This document shows positions 4,126 through 58,376 of a DNA stretch of 64,000 bases, piece after piece; the stretch's first letter is position 1, and each line of letters begins with the position of its first letter. Both the position numbers and the translations under genes were made by a program. Source of the DNA: Thermoanaerobaculia bacterium (GTDB lineage: Bacteria; Acidobacteriota; Thermoanaerobaculia; UBA5066); the NCBI GenBank assembly GCA_038245905.1, contig JBBRRY010000001.1:192001-256000 (forward strand). Direction: 5' to 3'. Under the pieces are notes generated by a model. That model had not been told where the DNA came from. It was given only the letters and a program-made list of their open reading frames with translations, and made no database searches.

Positions 4126-4863
4126 GTGACCCCCGCGCGGCCCCCCGGCTCCGACGCGCTCCGGGAAACCCTCGCCTACTATCTCGACCTCGGCGTGGCG
4201 GAGCTGTACCTCGACGCAGGGTCCGAAGAGCACCGGGAGGAAGAGATTCCTTTGGTAGTGAATAGCGGAGGGGAGGAAGCCGCAGCGCTCCTGGGGCCCC
4301 TCGCTCTTGAAGTCTCCACCTGCGTCACGTGCCGGCTGTGCAAAACCCGCAAGCAGACCGTGTTCGCCGATGGTTCGCCCGCCGCCCGGATCATGTTCAT
4401 CGGCGAGGCGCCGGGGGCCGACGAGGACGCGCAAGGCGTGCCGTTCGTGGGGCGCGCGGGCCAGCTTCTCACGCGGATGATCGAGGACGGCATGGGGCTG
4501 CCTCGCTCGTCCGTCTACATCGCGAACGTCCTGAAGTGCCGTCCGCCCGAGAACCGGAACCCGGAGCCCGACGAGATCGCCGCATGCCGCGGCTACCTCG
4601 AGCGACAGATCGACCTCGTGAAGCCAGAGGTGCTCGTCGCCCTCGGCAAGTTCGCCGCGCACTTCCTGCTGGAAACCGAGGAGGGCATCACGCGCCTTCG
4701 CGGTAAGTGGGGGAGCTATCGCGGCATTCCGGTGATGCCAACTCTCCATCCGTCCTACCTCCTCCGCCAACCGGCCCAGAAGAAGGAGTCGTGGGAGGAT
4801 CTGCTTGCGGTGCTCGCAAGGCTCGGGATCGACGCACCTGCACGCAGGGAGAAGCAGCCGTGA
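4126..4863 (+). CDS. Uracil-DNA glycosylase family 4 (Fe-S type)
   Basis: CxxCx[31 protein letters not shown]. Confidence 0.93.
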
Positions 4864-22225: not shown

Positions 22226-23668
22226 GTGAGAGAGCCCGCGCTTCCCCGCAAGGCCCGCAGCGTCTTCGTCGAGACGTGGGGCTGTCAGATGAATGTGCTC
22301 GATGGGCGGCGATTCATAGGGCTTCTGGAGCGAGAGGGGATCGTCGAGGCCGGGACGCCGGAGGAAGCCGACGTTGTTCTGCTCAACACATGCTCGGTGC
22401 GCGACAAGGCTGAGCAGAAGGTCTACGACCGGATCGGACGACTCGCGAAACTGAAGCGTGAACGCGCGGGGATGGTCATCGGGGTTTGTGGCTGCGTGGC
22501 GCAGCAAGAAGGGGAGGACCTCCTGGAGCGCCTCCCACAAGTGGATTTCATCCTCGGGACCGGGCGCATCGAGGCTCTCCCGTCGGTGCTGCGGCGGGTC
22601 GACGAAGAAGGCGACCGACCCTGCGAGACGGGATTCGACCTGGATGAAGTCGTCTATACGCCCGGCGCCGTCGCTCACGCGGTTCCGCACCGTGCCGGGA
22701 TCACGGTGATCGAGGGCTGCAACAAGAACTGCACGTTCTGCGTCGTTCCGAGAACGCGCGGGCGCGAGCGCAATCGCCGCCTGCGTGACGTCGTGGACGA
22801 GGCGCGTTCCCTGGTAGAGGCCGGTGCCCTCGAAATCGAGCTCCTGGGGCAGACCGTGAACGCCTTCCGCGACCCAGAAACGGGCGAGGATCTCGCGGAC
22901 CTCCTGCGCGCCGTCGGCGCCCTGGCAGGAATCCGGCGCCTACGCTTCGTCACGTCCCATCCCGCTAGTTTCTCGGACCGGCTCATCGCCGCGATGAGCG
23001 AGACGCCGGCAGTCGTTCCCGCGCTCCACCTGCCCGTGCAGTCAGGCTCCGACACGGTCCTTCGGCGCATGAAACGTCAGTACACCCGGGCGGAGTACCT
23101 CGACCTCGTCGCGCGGCTCCGCGCCGCAGTTCCAGGCCTCGCACTCTCGACCGACGTCATCGTGGGGTTCCCGGGTGAGACGGAGACTGATTTCCTGGAG
23201 ACGCTTTCGCTCTTTGAAGAGGTCCGGTTTGCCGGCGTCTTCTCCTTCACGTATTCGCCGCGCCCACAGACGGCGGCGCTCAGGTGGGAGCACGACGTCA
23301 CACCGCAGGAAGCATCCGCTCGCCTGGTGCGGCTCGAGGCGCTGCAGCAGGGAGTCCAGAGGGGCCTGAACCGCGCACTTGAGGGGAGCACCCTGGAGGT
23401 GCTCGTCGAAGGCCTCGACCGCAAGCGGCGCAACTGCTCGGGCCGATCGCGCTGTGGACGCGTCGTGAACATCGCTGGCGAGCTGAACCTCGCGCCCGGC
23501 ACGCTCGTGGACGTCCGGATCGAGCGAGGATTTCCGAATTCTCTGCTCGGACGAAGACAGGAAAAGACCCGGGAAAGCGCCCAGGAAAAGATCGAAGAGG
23601 AGATTTCTTCGAAAGTGATTGGGGGCGGAGTCACGGGTGCGACGCAAGTGCTCGACTTGCTCTTGTGA
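22226..23668 (+). CDS. miaB: tRNA methylthiotransferase MiaB
   Basis: ETWGCQMN, NTCSVRDKAE, GCVAQ, CNKNCTFC radical SAM motif, HLPVQSGS, TRAM domain. Confidence 0.95.
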   Translation: MREPALPRKARSVFVETWGCQMNVLDGRRFIGLLEREGIVEAGTPEEADVVLLNTCSVRDKAEQKVYDRIGRLAKLKRERAGMVIGVCGCVAQQEGEDLLERLPQVDFILGTGRIEALPSVLRRVDEEGDRPCETGFDLDEVVYTPGAVAHAVPHRAGITVIEGCNKNCTFCVVPRTRGRERNRRLRDVVDEARSLVEAGALEIELLGQTVNAFRDPETGEDLADLLRAVGALAGIRRLRFVTSHPASFSDRLIAAMSETPAVVPALHLPVQSGSDTVLRRMKRQYTRAEYLDLVARLRAAVPGLALSTDVIVGFPGETETDFLETLSLFEEVRFAGVFSFTYSPRPQTAALRWEHDVTPQEASARLVRLEALQQGVQRGLNRALEGSTLEVLVEGLDRKRRNCSGRSRCGRVVNIAGELNLAPGTLVDVRIERGFPNSLLGRRQEKTRESAQEKIEEEISSKVIGGGVTGATQVLDLLL

Positions 23669-23788: not shown

Positions 23789-24274
23789 TTGAGCGTCCGG
23801 ATGGAAGTGAAGGCACTGATTGTGGATCCAATAGCGAACATGCCTGTCGTGATCCTGCGCGACGCGGAGGAGAAGAACTTCCTGCCGATCTGGGTCGGCG
23901 TCTTCGAAGCAAATGCGATCGCCCTCCAGATGGAAGGCATTACGACCCCCAGGCCGATGACGCACGATCTTCTGAAGAACCTCATCACACAGATAGAGGG
24001 CGACGTCCTCAGGGTCGTCATCAACAACCTCAAGGAAAATACGTTCTACGCCCAGATCCATCTTCGTGTCGCGAACCGAGACGTGCTCGTGGACAGCCGT
24101 CCCTCGGACGCGATCGCACTCGCGCTCCGGCTCGCCGCTCCCGTGTTCGTAGAAGAATCGGTTCTCGAAAAAAGCCGTAGCGGGCAAGACACCTCGGAGT
24201 CCCAGAATTCCGAGCGCCTCCGGAAGTGGTTCGAGGAAGCCGATCCGGACACGCTCGGCAAGTACCGGATGTAG
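23789..24274 (+). CDS. Bifunctional nuclease family (BFN/DUF151); alternative ATG at 23801
   Basis: LPIWVG.FEA.AI, RPMTHDL, DSRPSDAIALALR. Confidence 0.92.
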   Translation: MSVRMEVKALIVDPIANMPVVILRDAEEKNFLPIWVGVFEANAIALQMEGITTPRPMTHDLLKNLITQIEGDVLRVVINNLKENTFYAQIHLRVANRDVLVDSRPSDAIALALRLAAPVFVEESVLEKSRSGQDTSESQNSERLRKWFEEADPDTLGKYRM

Positions 24275-24346
24275 TTTTCGGAGCCGGGGAGCGAATTCGT
24301 CCTTGATGCGCTCTCGGACCCTCCGTATCATCTGCGGCTCGAGCGC

Positions 24347-25108
24347 ATGATCATCACAGTTGCGAACCAGAAAGGCGGCGTGGGAAAGACCACGACGGCG
24401 ATTAACCTCGCTGCCGCACTTGCCCAGAAGGGCCTTCGCACGCTCCTCGTCGATCTGGACCCGCAGGGGAATTCCACCATGTCCTTCCTCGACCGCAAGG
24501 ACGTGGAGAAGTCGATGTACGACGTCCTGACGGATTCGAACGTCTCGGTCTTCGACATCGTCAAGCCCACTAAGGTACCGAAGCTCACCGTCGCCCCGGC
24601 CCGCATCTCGCTCGCGAAGGTCGAGTCCAAGCTCCTCGGGGAAATCGACGGTCACTTCAGGCTGAAGGACAAGTTCCAGGTCGTGCGGGAGTCAGGGGAG
24701 TACGACGCCATCCTCATCGACACGCCACCCACTCTCGGCATGATCACGGTAAATGCGCTCGTCGCGTCCACGCACATTCTGATTCCAATCCAGTCGTCCT
24801 ACTTCGCCCTGGAGGGCACCGACGACCTGCTCGAGACGATCGAAAAAATCAAGAGCCGTCCGAACCCGAATCTCCAGATCCTCGGGGTCGTCATCACGCT
24901 TCACGACAAGCGCACGACGCTTGGAAGAGACATCCAGGGCCAGATCGACCAGGTCTTCAAAGGGAAGCTTTTCAAGACGACGATTTCGAAATCCATCCGC
25001 CTCGAGGAATCGCCCGCTTACCGAGAATCCATTTTCACTTTCGCTCCGCGTTCGTCAGGCGCGCTCGAGTATTACAGCCTGACTGAGGAGATTCTTTCCC
25101 GTGTCTAA
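24347..25108 (+). CDS. parA: ParA/Soj family ATPase (no N-terminal HTH)
   Basis: NQKGGVGKTT deviant Walker A, DLDPQGN, IDTPP. Confidence 0.92.
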   Translation: MIITVANQKGGVGKTTTAINLAAALAQKGLRTLLVDLDPQGNSTMSFLDRKDVEKSMYDVLTDSNVSVFDIVKPTKVPKLTVAPARISLAKVESKLLGEIDGHFRLKDKFQVVRESGEYDAILIDTPPTLGMITVNALVASTHILIPIQSSYFALEGTDDLLETIEKIKSRPNPNLQILGVVITLHDKRTTLGRDIQGQIDQVFKGKLFKTTISKSIRLEESPAYRESIFTFAPRSSGALEYYSLTEEILSRV

Positions 25109-26009
25109 GCGTCGCGGTCTCCCCGAATCCTCTCGCATGCGCCACGACTCTCACTTCGTCGATCAGCTCGTCCGCGCGGACGAACTTCCCGTCGGTCGCC
25201 GAATCGCCATTCACCTCATCGAGGCGAATCCCGATCAACCCCGAAGCGTGATGGGAGATCTGGCAGAGCTCACGAAGTCAATCGTCGACAAGGGCGTCCT
25301 CGAGCCGATCCTGGTCCGCCCACGCGGCGACGGTCGCTTCACGATCATCTCCGGCGAGCGCCGGTTCCGGGCTTCGCTGGAAGCGGGACTTGCCGAGGTT
25401 CCCTGCATCGAGATGGACGTCCCTGACAACGAGCTCCTCGAGATCGCGCTCGTCGAGAATCTTCAACGCAGGGATCTCAGTCCGTTTGAAGAGGCCGAGG
25501 GCTATCGGGCACTCAAGGAACGCCATGGATATACGCACGAGCAGATTGCGGATGCCGTGGGGAAGTCGCGCGTCACGGTCACCGAGGCGCTGTCGATCGC
25601 GAGGCTTCCTGATCGCGTCCAGGCCGAATGTCGGCGCGCCGACATCGGCTCGCGTTCCTTCCTCCTGGAGCTAGGCCGCCTTAAGGATGAGGACCTCATG
25701 CTTGCCGCCGTCGCTGCGATGACGAGCGGTGACTCCATGAGCCGCGACGTTCTCCGTGAGGCAAAGAGGGACACGCGGCGAGGAGCTGTTTCGAAGAAGC
25801 TCGGAGGCCTCAAGAAAGCCTATTCACTGGACTTCACTCCTGAAGATCGGAACTACAGAGTCAGCCTCGTACTCAAGGGACGGCTCCACAAGAAGGACGA
25901 GATTCTCGAGGCGATCAGGGACCTCGCGCGCCGAATCGAGGCAGGGGACATCGATCTCGAGACGCAGGGGAAATTCGTCAGGACAAAGGCAAAGAAGAAG
26001 ACCTCATAG
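25101..26009 (+). CDS. parB: ParB/Spo0J family CTPase DNA-binding protein with atypical HTH
   Basis: NPDQPR, GERRFRA, ENLQR.DLSPFEEA, HTH THEQIADAVGKSR; overlaps parA stop. Confidence 0.9.
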   Translation: MSKRRGLPESSRMRHDSHFVDQLVRADELPVGRRIAIHLIEANPDQPRSVMGDLAELTKSIVDKGVLEPILVRPRGDGRFTIISGERRFRASLEAGLAEVPCIEMDVPDNELLEIALVENLQRRDLSPFEEAEGYRALKERHGYTHEQIADAVGKSRVTVTEALSIARLPDRVQAECRRADIGSRSFLLELGRLKDEDLMLAAVAAMTSGDSMSRDVLREAKRDTRRGAVSKKLGGLKKAYSLDFTPEDRNYRVSLVLKGRLHKKDEILEAIRDLARRIEAGDIDLETQGKFVRTKAKKKTS

Positions 26010-26170
26010 GAAGACAGAACAGAGGCACCAGGCCAGCTCGCCGCCCGCCGCGCCCTCTCAGTCAAATCGCCGTGCGCTTTCATTAACGCCTTCAAATTCC
26101 CTTTCTAAGAAAACCCCTAATGCCCTTTTCCTTCCGCGCGCCTAATGATTTCATGTCTTGTAATTCTGAT

Positions 26171-26198
26171 ATTTAACATAATAAATCTTATCGGACCT
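26171..26198 (-). other. dif: dif site (XerC/XerD chromosome dimer resolution site)
   Basis: Minus strand AGGTCCGATAA-GATTTA-TTATGTTAAAT: 11-6-11 layout; XerD arm identical to E. coli dif; intergenic AT-rich; gene orientation converges here. Confidence 0.9.
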
Positions 26199-26242
26199 TG
26201 TGTTCTGGCCTCGGAATGAGAGCGCTTCGGCTACGATCTGCC

Positions 26243-28555
26243 GTGCTCTCGCGCTTGAATCGCTACGTCTTCCTGGAAGTAGCCGGTCCCACGGTCATAG
26301 GCTTCCTCGCGTACACCGGCTTCATGGCGGTACGAGGGCTGGTGCAGTTTTCCGAGCTCCTCGTCCAGAGCGAGCGCCCGTTCGCCGAAGCAGGTCTCGT
26401 GGTAGCGCTCTCGCTCCCGCACATCGTGGTTCTCACGCTGCCCGTCGCGTTCCTTCTCGGACTCCTCATCGGCATCGGCCGCCTCTCGGCTGACTCCGAG
26501 CTGACTGCCCTTCGAGCCTCGGGCGTCGATCTTCTCGTGCTCTATCGCCCGATCGGGGTGCTCGCGACCGTCACTGCCGGCGTGACCCTCGTCCTGATGC
26601 TCACCGTCGTCCCCCGCACGAATCACCTTCTGTATGCCATGAAGCTTCGCCTCTCGAGCTTTGCATTCGCCCAGAGAATCCAGCCGGGCGTGTTCAGCCC
26701 GGAGATCGCCGGCTTGCGCGTCTACGCCGAAGGGGCGTCTCCGGACCGGCGCGAGCTCACCGGGCTCATTATCTCGGACCGTTCCAATCCCGAAGGGGCT
26801 GAGTTGACGCTCGCGCGGCGCGGCTGGCTCGAGCTCGAGGAGGAGCAGGGCCGCTTGTGGCTCCGGGTAGAGGACGCGGAGCGGCACCACCTCTCGGAGG
26901 ACGGGCGGCGATACGACGTCACCTCGTTCTCCCGGCAGCGCATGGTCCTGCAAGACAACGGACCGACCCTTGGCGTCTCCGAAAAGCAGATCCGGGAGCA
27001 GACCCTCCGCGAGCTGCTGGACCGAGCCTCCGCCCGGGCGCGCCGCCCCGAGGACCGGCGACTCGCCCTCACCGAGGTCCACAAGAAGTTCGCGCTCCCG
27101 GCAGCCTGCCTCGTCTTCGGTCTGATCGGGCTCCCCCTCGGAATCGTCAACCGGCGAGGCGGCCGCGCGGCCGGGTTTGCGGTGTCGATCGGGATCGTGC
27201 TCTTCTACTACGCTCTCCTCGCCACGGGCGAGGCCCGCGCCATCGAAGGCCGCATGTCGCCCGCTCTCGCCATGTGGTTGCCAAACCTCCTGCTTCTCGG
27301 CTTCGGCGCATACGCCCTGGCTCGCGTGCGGCGCGACAAGAGCATCGTCGCCCTCCCCTTCAGGACGTCGCTCGTCGCCACCCGTGCCGAGATCTTGGGC
27401 CCCGGCTCGATCGCCGCCTCCGCTCCGATCGAACGCCCAGTCGCGACGCCCGGCCGCCGCGCTTCCCTGCCGGGCCTCCTTCTCGTTGACCGTTACATCG
27501 CAAGGCGATTTCTCGGCGTCTTCGTTCTCGTCGTGGCCTCGATCGCGACTCTGTACATGCTGATCGACTACCTCGAGATTTCAGACGACATCGCGCGCCA
27601 TCGGCCACCGACGTCCTTGATCCTCCGTTACGTCCAGGCTTCGCTCTCCCCCATCGTTCTGGCCATCGTGCCGTTCGCCTTCCTCGTCGCGGCCCTCGTC
27701 ACGGTTGCGAGCCTCGTGCGCTCGGCCGAGACGACCGCTCTCCTGGCGCACGGCGTTTCTCTCTACCGGACGACGGCCCCGATTCTCGTCCTCGCCGTGA
27801 TCGCAGGAGGCCTCCTCTTCCTCTTCGCCGAGCGCATCGTCCCGACGGCCGCCTCCGAAGCCGATCGACTCAGGTTCCTGTTGAAGGGACAGACGCCACC
27901 TGCAAGCAACGCCGGCGGTGTCTGGTTCCGCGGCGACGCGGGGCGTTTCTATTCCGCGGACGCCTACGACCCCGCGTCGCGCATCGCCGTCGGCGTGACG
28001 GTCTTTCAGATCGATCCGTCGACCTGGAGGCTTGTCTCCCGTCACGACGCGGCACGGGCACGCCTCGCCCCTGGGAAAGGCCTCCTCGCGGAGGACGGGT
28101 GGATCCGTACGTTCACCGAGGGCCATACTCTCGCCATCCGGCGCGACGGCCCGTTCTTCATCGATTCTCCCGAATCCGCGGCCGGATTCGTCTCTGGCCG
28201 GGCGGACCCACGCCAGATGACCTACCGCGAGCTGGCGCGCTTCATCGAGGTGCGGCGCCGGGCGGGTGCCGACACGGCGATGCTCGCGACCGGGCTGCAC
28301 CAGAAGACCGCTGGGGCGGCTTCCGCACTTCTCCTGACACTCGTCGGGCTTCCCTTCGCGTTCGCGTACGGAAAGCGAGGCGCCGTCGCGGGCGTCGGCA
28401 TCGCGCTGTTCCTTGGCCTGACCTACCTGTTCCTGTCCGCGCTCCTCGTTTCGTTCGGCGAGCAGGGAGCCATTCCACCCCTCATCGCGGCATGGGCGCC
28501 GAACGTGTTCTTCGGGCTCGGGGCGGCGTGGGGGCTTTTGGGGGTCAGGACGTAA
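26243..28555 (+). CDS. Fused LptF-LptG LPS export permease
   Basis: Two tandem YjgP/YjgQ units (RLSADSELTALRASG..WLPN; SAETTALLAHG..WAPN). Confidence 0.88.
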   Translation: MLSRLNRYVFLEVAGPTVIGFLAYTGFMAVRGLVQFSELLVQSERPFAEAGLVVALSLPHIVVLTLPVAFLLGLLIGIGRLSADSELTALRASGVDLLVLYRPIGVLATVTAGVTLVLMLTVVPRTNHLLYAMKLRLSSFAFAQRIQPGVFSPEIAGLRVYAEGASPDRRELTGLIISDRSNPEGAELTLARRGWLELEEEQGRLWLRVEDAERHHLSEDGRRYDVTSFSRQRMVLQDNGPTLGVSEKQIREQTLRELLDRASARARRPEDRRLALTEVHKKFALPAACLVFGLIGLPLGIVNRRGGRAAGFAVSIGIVLFYYALLATGEARAIEGRMSPALAMWLPNLLLLGFGAYALARVRRDKSIVALPFRTSLVATRAEILGPGSIAASAPIERPVATPGRRASLPGLLLVDRYIARRFLGVFVLVVASIATLYMLIDYLEISDDIARHRPPTSLILRYVQASLSPIVLAIVPFAFLVAALVTVASLVRSAETTALLAHGVSLYRTTAPILVLAVIAGGLLFLFAERIVPTAASEADRLRFLLKGQTPPASNAGGVWFRGDAGRFYSADAYDPASRIAVGVTVFQIDPSTWRLVSRHDAARARLAPGKGLLAEDGWIRTFTEGHTLAIRRDGPFFIDSPESAAGFVSGRADPRQMTYRELARFIEVRRRAGADTAMLATGLHQKTAGAASALLLTLVGLPFAFAYGKRGAVAGVGIALFLGLTYLFLSALLVSFGEQGAIPPLIAAWAPNVFFGLGAAWGLLGVRT

Positions 28556-56667: not shown

Positions 56668-57453
56668 TCAGAGGGCCGCTCGTGCGATCCGGCCGGGCGG
56701 GCCCCACAGCGCGAGCACGCGTTTCACGTAGTCGAGGGTCTCCCGGTAAGGCGGCACGCCGCCGTATTCCTCCACCGCATGCTCTCCCGCGTTGTACGCC
56801 GCCAGGATGAGATCCGCGTTCGTCTCACCGAACCGCTCGGCGAGCTCGGCGAGATACGCGACGCCGCCACGGATGTTGTCCCGCGGATCGAACGGGCGCT
56901 TCACGCCGAGGCGCCGCGCCGTGGCCGGCATGAGCTGCATGAGACCGCGCGCTCCCTTCCGGGACACGGCATGCGGGTGGCCGTTCGACTCGACCTTGAT
57001 GACGGCCGCGATGAACGCGGGATCGACTTTGTGCTCCTTCGCGGCCGCGAGAATCTGCGAGGAATAGGGGGACGAGAAGGAGGAATAGGGCGATTCCGAG
57101 AGGGTGCGGACGGAACGGCTTGCTTCCAAAGGCGCGCCGACCGGGACCCCACCGGCGTCTCCCGGCTTCGTCGGCGCCGGACGCTCGTACTCGTCGTCCA
57201 CGATGCGCGCGACGACGTCGAGGGGAATCGTCATCGAGCCGCCGCCCACGAGCCCGACCGTGAGCCGGTCGCCGTCCACGACCTCGTAGCTCGCGACCCG
57301 GAGATGTCGCCCGTCCTCGAACACGACGAGCGTGGCGGCCGCTGGCGCCGCGCAGAGGCCTAGAAGAGCGAACCCTGCACAGACGAGGACGATCCCTCTT
57401 CCCCTTCTGAGCAAATCCCTCTCTTTCTTCTCTTTCCGACTCATCGCCATCAT
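56668..57453 (-). CDS. Lytic transglycosylase (SLT domain)
   Basis: VES, AVSRKGARGLMQLMP, AAYNAG, PPYRET..YV. Confidence 0.92.
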   Translation of the reverse strand: MMAMSRKEKKERDLLRRGRGIVLVCAGFALLGLCAAPAAATLVVFEDGRHLRVASYEVVDGDRLTVGLVGGGSMTIPLDVVARIVDDEYERPAPTKPGDAGGVPVGAPLEASRSVRTLSESPYSSFSSPYSSQILAAAKEHKVDPAFIAAVIKVESNGHPHAVSRKGARGLMQLMPATARRLGVKRPFDPRDNIRGGVAYLAELAERFGETNADLILAAYNAGEHAVEEYGGVPPYRETLDYVKRVLALWGPPGRIARAAL

Positions 57454-58376
57454 GCCCTCGGGTGCGTCCGGTCGTAGACCTTGCGGATGCGCGAGCGGGA
57501 GACATGCGTGTAGATCTCGGTCGTGGCGATGTCCGCATGGCCGAGCATCATCTGAACGGCCCTGAGGTCGGCGTCGTTGTCGACGAGATGCGTCGCGAAC
57601 GCGTGCCGGAGGACGTGGGGAGATACGGCGGAAGCCGGCAGGTCCGCTTTCCGTGCCGCGGCCTTCAGTGCGAGAAAGACGGTCTGCCTCGTGATCGGCT
57701 TTCCGCTCGCACCCGGGAACACCCATCGCCCCGCCGCACCCGGCTTCACGGCCCGTACCGCCTGCAGGTAGCGCGCGACCCATCGCGCGGAGGAATCCGC
57801 GATCGGCACGACCCGCTCTTTCGCGCCCTTGCCGCGAACCACGATGAAGCCTTCCGGGAGGCGCAGCGCCTCCAAGGGAAGAGTCGCGAGCTCCGAGACC
57901 CGGAGGCCGCAGGCATAGAGCAGCTCGAAAAGCGCGCGGTTGCGCAGGCCTCGCGGGGTCGTCACGTCCGGCGCGTCCAGAAGACGCATCACGTCGTCTG
58001 GCGAGAGAACCTTCGGAAGCATCGCCCATCGCCGGGCGTTCGCGAGGTCGGCCGTCGGGTCCGCCGTGAGGACCTTCTCCGCGGCGAGAAATCCATAGAG
58101 CCCACGCAGCGCCGAGGTGAGCCGCGCGAGGGTGCGGGGCGACATCCCCTCCGCGCGGCGGACGCCGAGATACGCGACAACGTCGCCGCGCGTGACCCGG
58201 GATGGATCCCTCCTAGAGGACGCGATATACGTCCCGAACGCCGCGAGATCGCGGCGGTATGCTTCGAGCGTATTCGATGAGAGGCCCTTTTCCGCCGAAA
58301 GATAGTCGAGGAAGAGCGGGAGGTGCTTCTGAAAGAAGACGCCGGCCGGCGTTTTGGCAGGAGATCCCGAACTCAC
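57450..58376 (-). CDS. xerD: Tyrosine recombinase XerD
   Basis: LYACGLRVSE, GKG.KER, SPHVLRHAFATHL, LGHADIATTEIYTHV. Confidence 0.9.
   Translation of the reverse strand: MSSGSPAKTPAGVFFQKHLPLFLDYLSAEKGLSSNTLEAYRRDLAAFGTYIASSRRDPSRVTRGDVVAYLGVRRAEGMSPRTLARLTSALRGLYGFLAAEKVLTADPTADLANARRWAMLPKVLSPDDVMRLLDAPDVTTPRGLRNRALFELLYACGLRVSELATLPLEALRLPEGFIVVRGKGAKERVVPIADSSARWVARYLQAVRAVKPGAAGRWVFPGASGKPITRQTVFLALKAAARKADLPASAVSPHVLRHAFATHLVDNDADLRAVQMMLGHADIATTEIYTHVSRSRIRKVYDRTHPRA

Follow-up and report, generated by a model that had tools for sequence, protein, structure and literature searches.

A second parAB pair with a candidate centromere lies beside dif at the replication terminus of many Acidobacteriota chromosomes

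We analysed a 64-kb stretch of DNA from a soil-dwelling Thermoanaerobaculia bacterium (hereafter the window), which corresponds to positions 192001–256000 of the 347-kb contig C1 in a draft assembly (G000) of 113 contigs and 3,797,265 bp. This stretch carries two intact partition genes, parA2 and parB2, which overlap by 8 nt and lie next to dif, a XerC/XerD site. parA2 (24347–25108, + strand) encodes a 253-residue Soj/ParA-type deviant Walker A ATPase and parB2 (25101–26009, + strand) a 302-residue ParB/Spo0J-type DNA-binding protein with a CTPase fold. The 28-bp dif site, of 11-6-11 architecture (26171–26198; ATTTAACATAA-TAAATC-TTATCGGACCT) and unique in the genome, starts 161 bp after the parB2 stop codon. 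A perfect 16-bp palindrome, TGTCGGCGCGCCGACA (18 bp with the flanking A/T), which we propose as the candidate centromere parS2, is found inside parB2 at 25629–25644, 527 bp from dif. An earlier note on the window had placed the end of the gene pair at 26009 and the start of an 11-6-11 dif site at 26171, coordinates which our analysis bears out. Judged by sequence, these elements establish a complete second ParABS system at the terminus beside dif, made up of an intact ATPase, a predicted CTPase-fold ParB and a cognate-looking palindrome.

The ATPase is a conventional member of its family. ParA2 matches the Pfam profiles AAA_31 (192 bits) and CbiA (97 bits), and its translation carries the motifs KGGVGKTT, DLDPQGN and LIDTPP, which we take to be the deviant Walker A, Walker A' and Walker B motifs of the type Ib form of about 250 residues that lacks an N-terminal helix-turn-helix (HTH). 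The closest solved structures are chromosomal ParA/Soj proteins (8ray, 5e-53; 1wcv, 1e-50), so that motifs, AAA_31 score and nearest structures all assign ParA2 to the ParA/Soj (type Ib) partition ATPases; MipZ and MinD profiles match it weakly, with scores far under its ParA-type ones. ParA2 is 41% identical to ParA1 (C3:51728), the ParA of the origin system described below, and 58–98% identical to its counterparts across the phylum. A third ParA-like gene of G000, at C2:131918–132652, is 30% identical to ParA2 and is a possible MinD or other orphan ParA.

ParB2 combines the conserved core of the ParB family with features of its own. It scores well above the cut-offs of ParB_N (PF02195, 90.6 bits against 26.3) and of the NCBIfam profile TIGR00180 (141 bits against 58), and its HTH matches HTH_ParB (PF17762, 55 bits) over profile positions 2–63 of 102 only. 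When ParB2 proteins from distant lineages (14 sequences) were aligned with ParB1, residues G85, E86, R87, R88, E119, N120, R123 and D125 of the CTP (cytidine triphosphate)-binding boxes were invariant, and the GERR box and the ENLQR.DL..FEEA box, taken as wholes, varied little or not at all. At its N-terminus ParB2 has a motif of its own, KRRGLP...RMRHD.HFV, while ParB1 has a different, LGKGL-type peptide. At the other end ParB2 has no match to ParB_C (PF23552) in Pfam, in contrast to ParB1, and its C-terminus aligns as strand-strand-helix in the same 15 sequences. An AlphaFold2 model built from a shallow alignment (mean predicted local distance difference test score, pLDDT, of 79.6) shows an N-domain, a helical DNA-binding domain and a low-confidence linker, together with a beta-beta-alpha unit at residues 241–281 (pLDDT 81–90). 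Among solved structures ParB2 is closest to Spo0J/ParB of Thermus and Caulobacter and to an entry named "ParB family protein", followed by Noc. ParB2 and ParB1 are 49% identical, a similarity confined to 138 residues of N-domain and HTH, and a search for homologues of ParB2 returned close ParB relatives only, all with generic names. In a tree of 19 rows, rooted at the midpoint with no outgroup, the ParB1 and ParB2 proteins of six shared genomes fall into two groups on a branch with 100/100 support, a separation which agrees with the paralogy that the earlier note had suggested should be examined by phylogeny.

The genome has a separate partition system at its origin. A profile search of the assembly found two genes with a ParB_N domain, the second of which lies on contig C3 in a typical origin region, with gyrB-recF-dnaN-dnaA and yidC-mnmE-gidB-parA1-parB1 on opposite strands. 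dnaA is found at C3:44126–44611, and the sole perfect canonical parS of G000 (TGTTTCACGTGAAACA) lies at C3:51693, at the start of parA1 and 8 kb from dnaA. The runner-up canonical sites have three mismatches and are located on C6, C7 and C18, while none was found on C1 at up to three mismatches. Similarly, the canonical parS variants of two relatives, G028 and G144, occur only next to ParB1 and dnaA. Because a canonical parAB pair with a perfect parS is present near dnaA and gidB on C3, the pair in the window is the second one, as the earlier note had proposed after finding neither dnaA nor a canonical parS in the window, both of which we located on C3. parA2-parB2 itself has neither mark of an origin-proximal parABS, since in closed relatives it lies opposite dnaA, and in G000 it has no canonical parS nearby.

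Several features identify the site downstream of parB2 as dif. Its 11-nt XerD-type arm, which we take to be identical to the XerD arm of Escherichia coli, is present once in the assembly at up to one mismatch. In relatives the 26-nt core of dif is the only near-perfectly conserved block in an otherwise diverged intergenic region, and a 21-nt pattern derived from it matches each of five near-closed genomes exactly once, and the controls not at all. The recombination machinery is encoded in the same genome: xerD (57453–58313, − strand; C1:249453–250313) lies 31 kb from dif, the distance that had been noted before, and matches TIGR02225 with 331.1 bits against a cut-off of 329.6, a XerC-like gene is found at C3:14763–15647 and FtsK with its gamma domain is encoded on C6.

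Gene orientation and a polar motif also switch at this site. In the window, the genes called by a crude caller based on GC content at third codon positions (GC3) are on the + strand in 17 of 19 cases to the left of dif and on the − strand in 18 of 31 cases to its right; the convergence of genes on dif reported earlier therefore stands, although not with the counts then given (25 of 26 and 27 of 37). A cumulative walk of gene strands over the whole of C1 reaches its maximum at C1:221.3 kb, or 3 kb from dif (C1:218171). The 7-mer GGGGGAG occurs 45 times on the + strand and 9 times on the − strand of C1 to the left of dif, compared with 0 and 27 times to its right, and the best switch point of the motif is the interval C1:207861–219131, which contains dif. 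It is also strongly one-sided on most other contigs (for example 24:2, 1:18 and 12:0). The motif was first noticed at the dif break-point, and its own optimum and the other contigs were examined afterwards, so it is partly selected. We consider GGGGGAG, with its extended form CGGGGGAG, a candidate for the FtsK-orienting polar sequence (KOPS) of this lineage. As a single-copy 28-bp imperfect palindrome of 11-6-11 architecture, and with the convergence of KOPS-like motifs on it, the G000 site has the properties of a XerCD site. Twelve of the GGGGGAG sites of C1 fall within the window, at 4709–54432. In an unbiased 8-mer scan for break-points, codon and strand effects prevailed over other signals and the break was placed near C1:134 kb; a sharp switch was seen with the G-rich GGGGGAG/CGGGGGAG family alone.

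Closed relatives give the best evidence on position. In seven closed or near-closed genomes parB2 lies at 0.45–0.50 of the circle from dnaA: the shorter arc between the two genes measures 0.496 in G028 (3,837,011 bp), 0.470 in G109 (3,949,503 bp), 0.476 in G128 (5,989,545 bp) and 0.473 in G144 (6,493,506 bp), and, over the largest contig, 0.489 in G042 (5,870,592 bp), 0.453 in G117 (5,761,898 bp) and 0.495 in G190 (3,986,945 bp). The same arc is about 0.48 in G077, for which a rounded size was used, and with ParB1 as a proxy for the origin the arc to ParB2 is about 0.49–0.50 in G027, G033 and G040. The parA2-parB2 locus thus sits at ter, not at oriC, and the terminal location proposed in the earlier note is upheld by both these arcs and the convergence of gene strands and the polar motif on dif.

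The palindrome TGTCGGCGCGCCGACA is a candidate for the centromere of this pair. In G000 the palindrome has no other occurrence at up to one mismatch and two at two mismatches, and a scan of all loci for common perfect palindromes found it in 35 of them. When compared with canonical parS, five of the eight positions in each half-site differ, so that only the outer TGT/ACA is in common. ParB2, whose DNA-recognition helix is altered, retains the GKSR sequence but carries a glutamate (E162, shared by at least 90% of the 15 sequences in the alignment) at the position of Asn178, a DNA-contacting residue kept in both ParB and Noc (PMC7383237), and this substitution is in keeping with how little parS2 and canonical parS share. 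A search for repeats with a 9-nt seed did not detect the 8+8 palindrome; its one result was a 22-bp near-palindrome (core TCGTCCGCGCGGACGA) at 25165–25186, in the 5' part of parB2, which is probably incidental as it is common to only four loci.

The palindrome inside parB2 also encodes the peptide CRRADI, and therefore coding constraint has to be separated from constraint on the DNA. Among 40 distinct Thermoanaerobaculia sequences, the codons in the palindrome are nearly fixed (TGT in 40, CGG in 40, CGC in 38, GCC in 40 and GAC in 40), whereas the invariant Arg, Ala, Leu and Ser codons that flank it use three to five synonyms, with four to five for Arg and Ala. Moreover, in other lineages non-coding copies are present about 90–180 bp upstream of parA2 at loci L066–L068 and L071 (TGTCGACATGTCGACA), at L069, and at L074 and L082 (TGTCGGCCGGCCGACA), and downstream of parB2 at L080 and L081; the non-coding palindrome, or a symmetric variant of it, was seen where the in-gene copy is absent or altered.

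The distribution of the palindrome follows that of ParB2. We used a phylum-wide sample of 151 Acidobacteriota genomes, each at least 90% complete, and scored as ParB2-positive those with a match at E ≤ 1e-40. The pattern TGTCGGCNNGCCGACA was present in 65 of the 151, comprising 64 of the 90 ParB2-positive genomes and 1 of the 61 ParB2-negative ones, and a reversed control matched 4 of 151. In the lone ParB2-negative genome, G101, the match is an imperfect copy of the in-gene form, located on a small contig and possibly part of a fragmentary parB2. Of 80 tabulated sites (five further ones, in G082, G121 and G177, are omitted from the table), 30 lie inside parB2, 27 within 1.2 kb of it and 14 on the same contig at 1.2–60 kb; the rest consist of one at 76 kb, seven on other contigs and the one in the ParB2-negative genome. 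In the closed genome G144, sites at 875,554, 906,860, 928,746 (inside parB2), 978,827 and 1,005,002 cluster within 130 kb around dif (928,245), and no site with the same arm occurs elsewhere in its 6.49 Mb. Two genomes of 8.3–8.4 Mb, G135 and G124, have three and two perfect sites, respectively, at up to 35 kb from dif. The copy number of parS2 seems to rise with genome size, with one copy at 3.8–6 Mb, five at 6.5 Mb and two to three at 8.3–8.4 Mb, all within tens of kb of dif. On this sequence evidence TGTCGGCGCGCCGACA behaves as a candidate centromere belonging to the second system.

The association of the gene pair with dif is conserved well beyond the source genus. ParB2-type matches were found, alongside ParB1-type ones, in 40 of 41 genomes of the source's order, the exception (G038) being 51% complete, and the 90 ParB2-positive genomes of the phylum-wide sample are spread across many families. 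dif follows parB2 in 23 of 24 loci of the genus, the 24th of which ends at a contig edge, and in all six loci of family f2. Among 44 loci from named metagenome-assembled genomes, dif is found at most 2.5 kb away in 37; one more locus stops immediately after parB2, and the other six, all Vicinamibacteria, show no dif within about 6 kb. A degenerate dif pattern matched 82 genomes of the phylum-wide sample, 55 of them ParB2-positive; in these, parB2 and dif are at most 2.5 kb apart in 47 (median 255 bp) and at most 7 kb apart in 51, while in 3 dif is on another contig. The unpublished genomes G025, G030 and G183 are counted in these tallies; their removal shifts each number by at most two and alters no conclusion (ParB2-type matches in 38 of 39 genomes of the order and in 88 of 149 phylum-wide, the parS2 pattern in 63 of 149 genomes and in 62 of 88 ParB2-positive ones, and dif within 2.5 kb of parB2 in 45 of 53).

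The flanking genes are conserved as well. Upstream of parA2 lie a gene for a miaB-type radical-SAM methylthiotransferase (22226–23668, + strand; Pfam UPF0004, Radical_SAM and TRAM) and, immediately 5' of parA2, a gene with a bifunctional nuclease (BFN) domain (23789–24274, + strand; PF02577, 142 bits). A sigma-70-like promoter match, TTGATG-17-TATCAT (24303–24331, + strand; 9 of 12 positions, a match to the consensus only), ends 16 nt before the parA2 start codon. Directly 3' of dif is a fused lptF-lptG permease gene (26216–28555, + strand), a single 785-residue reading frame that matches TIGR04407 at residues 20–375 and TIGR04408 at residues 430–781. This frame opens at a TTG at 26198 and its likely start is the ATG at 26216, about 18 bp past dif, which places dif within the leader or promoter region of lptFG. 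The order miaB-BFN-parA2-parB2-(dif)-lptFG-metK recurs across Acidobacteriota classes, BFN adjoins parA2 in nearly all loci with enough flanking sequence, and the flanks of L074 resemble those of Thermoanaerobaculia. Two genomes that lack ParB2 show what appear to be empty forms of the locus: in G146 (L086) the order is miaB-BFN-dif, with BFN and dif about 86 bp apart, and in G057 (L083) dif precedes lptFG by 135 bp. These forms fit gain or loss of the gene pair alike. Because the synteny is found in dozens of independent assemblies from several classes, single-contig genomes included, it does not result from an assembly join, and the gene order miaB-BFN-parAB-dif-lptFG, whose conservation had been put forward as a check on the original observation, is retained in several classes. 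The best reading of these comparisons is that the parABS2 module has been inherited vertically, terminus position included, through much of Acidobacteriota. In some relatives of the genus (L036–L040) an inverted pair of TCTTAGAAGG- and CCTTCTAAGA-like elements, about 100 nt apart, is present between parB2 and dif, and the window holds one copy of that element, TTTCTAAGAAA, at about 26103–26113.

From these data we infer a role for parAB2 at ter, whether in segregation, in positioning or in coupling to division. We think it probable, if far from certain, that this is a second ParABS system, orthogonal to the one at the origin and dedicated to the terminus, which would position ter at mid-nucleoid and separate sister termini. 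ParB2 dimers would load at parS2 and close as CTP-dependent clamps, which would spread over the adjoining DNA, dif included, so that the resulting partition complex would mark the terminus. The conserved N-terminal peptide of ParB2 (KRRGLP...) would stimulate nucleoid-bound ParA2-ATP, and the resulting ParA2 gradient could keep the single unreplicated terminus at mid-nucleoid, as ParABS does for a single-copy plasmid. After replication of the terminus and resolution of dimers by XerCD/FtsK at dif, the same gradient would move the sister termini apart and off the closing septum. Each chromosome would then have two centromeres, parS at ori with ParAB1 and parS2 at ter with ParAB2. Whether much of Acidobacteriota has such a two-centromere chromosome, with parS2 of the TGTCG-N6-CGACA type at dif and active separation of sister termini, is a proposition to which we give roughly even chances.

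Several observations weigh against this interpretation. Whole families are among the 61 of 151 genomes without ParB2 at our threshold (0 of 8 genomes positive in f24 and 0 of 11 in f26), and therefore the system is dispensable in those lineages. Tight adjacency to dif is not universal, as no dif was found within about 5 kb of parB2 in any of the six Vicinamibacteria-type loci, nor in G042 and G117, the last two of which nevertheless have parB2 opposite dnaA. The orientation of dif relative to parB2 flips within family f2 (L026, L027 and L031 as opposed to L028–L030 and the loci of the genus); the site stays just downstream of parB2 where the arm facing the gene changes. The strict parS2 pattern is absent from 26 of the 90 ParB2-positive genomes, some of which carry variants such as TGTCGACATGTCGACA, and in G000 alone the conserved CRRADI peptide does not allow coding and DNA constraint to be fully told apart. 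That ParB2 is the protein which binds parS2 is itself deduced from sequence, and other binders are conceivable. GC skew is a poor locator of ter in this genome: it is weak on C1, and both the bulk and the third-codon curves peak 70–110 kb to the left of dif, at about C1:110–150 kb, in conflict with the switches in polar motif and gene strand. Skew, which the earlier note had suggested as a means of placing ter, does not by itself put ter here, since its cumulative peak is about 70 kb off dif. Finally, the proposed function is extrapolated from what is known of the ParA and ParB families.

A different possibility is that the module is a landmark of the terminus which does not segregate it, in that ParA2 or ParB2 would regulate the placement of the Z-ring, the loading or unloading of SMC (structural maintenance of chromosomes) complexes or the timing of XerCD/FtsK at dif. 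ParA-family ATPases such as MipZ, PomZ and MinD-type relatives are established as proteins which position division proteins, and ParA2 does give weak matches to the MipZ and MinD profiles. ParB-dependent loading of SMC is also established (PMC7333895). At the distance found in the window, ParB2 clamps that spread from parS2 would be expected to reach dif, and the gap between the two sites is at most about 2.5 kb in most lineages, a closeness of greater consequence if the module acts on dif than if it moves DNA in bulk. We nevertheless regard this alternative as unlikely, because ParA2 is closest to chromosomal Soj/ParA structures and scores far higher against ParA-type profiles than against MipZ or MinD, because the clusters of parS2 over 50–130 kb in large genomes resemble centromere arrays and not the single site of a regulator, and because the conserved neighbourhood contains no division or SMC gene.

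The palindrome might also be merely the autoregulatory operator of parAB2, in which case the pair would partition another cargo, such as a protein cluster or an unassembled replicon, and its place at ter would be a matter of history. ParB proteins commonly autoregulate, the only site in G000 is inside the operon, and a small replicon could be missing from a draft of 113 contigs. Against these points stand the relatives, where single-contig genomes carry both par systems on one chromosome, larger genomes hold two to five perfect sites around ter and outside the operon, and parAB2 has stayed beside dif in different classes, a constancy that history by itself would not preserve. We give this explanation very little credence.

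The least probable alternative, in our view a long shot, is that the locus is the relic of a small plasmid or of an integrative mobile element exploiting Xer (IMEX) which inserted at dif, and that it persists as a hitch-hiker or selfish stabiliser with no role for the host chromosome. Elements that integrate at dif are known (PMC5357621), the cassette occupies precisely the interval from BFN to dif, as the empty forms in G146 and G057 illustrate, and the overall GC content of parAB2 (0.58–0.61) is below that of the neighbouring genes; against this, the window has no second site with the dif architecture (6 loose matches to the XerC arm against 9.5 expected in 64 kb), no tRNA within 15 kb and no Rfam family nearby, GC3 is host-like (0.80 for parA2 and 0.73 for parB2, with a host range of 0.78–0.87), no plasmid ParB in PLSDB is closer than 41% identity over partial coverage, ParB2 forms one group across the phylum with conserved flanks and a conserved ParA2, and the extra copies of parS2 tens of kb away around ter would not be expected from a dead relic. 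With no flanking second dif-like site and a synteny conserved phylum-wide, the module does not qualify as an IMEX, and the absence of plasmid or phage context remarked on in the earlier note is confirmed. An ancient Xer-mediated capture followed by domestication is a possible origin of the module, and would be compatible with a present role as a terminus-dedicated partition system.

The handling of the terminus late in the cell cycle is understood mainly through FtsK/XerCD, together with MatP in enterobacteria, and we know of no model bacterium with a dedicated mitotic-like apparatus for the locus that is segregated last. ParABS systems are described as machines for the segregation of origins (PMC7333895), and a second system beside dif suggests that both ends of the replication cycle could be actively handled. 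Our search of the literature, which had most subscription journals outside its coverage, found no report of a ParABS system linked to the terminus or to dif, nor of the palindrome TGTCGGCGCGCCGACA. If the proposed role is correct, the module would allow active positioning of the terminus to be tested directly, and ParB2 with its site TGTCGGCGCGCCGACA would constitute a new orthogonal ParB/parS pair usable as a DNA-labelling tool beside existing pairs. The locus could also serve as a simple in silico marker of dif and ter in Acidobacteriota genomes, where GC skew is weak.

Compared with known systems, parABS2 most resembles the canonical oriC-proximal ParABS (Soj/Spo0J) in its parts. The two have the same protein families, the same layout of parA followed by an overlapping parB, CTP-binding boxes and an HTH; the ParB2 model suggests a similar beta-beta-alpha unit at the C-terminus, and the candidate parS2 is likewise a 16-bp palindrome of the form TGT...ACA located inside or beside parB. 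In contrast to the canonical system, parAB2 lies opposite the origin by dif, its site is changed at most half-site positions, ParB2 carries a glutamate in place of Asn178, has no ParB_C match in Pfam and has an N-terminal motif of its own, and the module coexists with a full canonical system on the same chromosome. MatP, the organiser of the Ter macrodomain in E. coli, acts at about two dozen matS sites around dif and has neither an ATPase partner nor a CTP clamp. parS2 sites are similarly confined around dif and presumably tied to late events of the cell cycle, but ParB2 belongs to an unrelated family, has an ATPase partner and typically has one to five sites.

The gonococcal genetic island, an IMEX at dif, is reported to carry parA and parB homologues. 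IMEX of this kind have genes directly beside dif (PMC5357621), as is the case here. parAB2 differs from them in having neither a second dif-like site nor mobile-element genes, and in its host-like codon usage and apparent vertical inheritance throughout the phylum. Noc is a ParB paralogue with altered site specificity whose sites are distributed over the chromosome except near ter (PMC7383237). ParB2 is likewise a ParB paralogue with a changed site that coexists with ParB; it was rejected as a Noc because it scores 143 bits against a cut-off of 315 for TIGR04285 and because its candidate sites are confined to ter, the reverse of the Noc pattern. Furthermore, Noc has no dedicated ParA, whereas ParB2 is paired with ParA2. 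ParAB2/parS2 of Vibrio cholerae chromosome 2, like the par systems of other secondary replicons, also gives one cell a further partition system that is orthogonal to the primary one and recognises a distinct site. The V. cholerae-type system serves a separate replicon near the origin of that replicon, whereas here, in single-contig genomes, both systems are found on one chromosome, with the second at ter.

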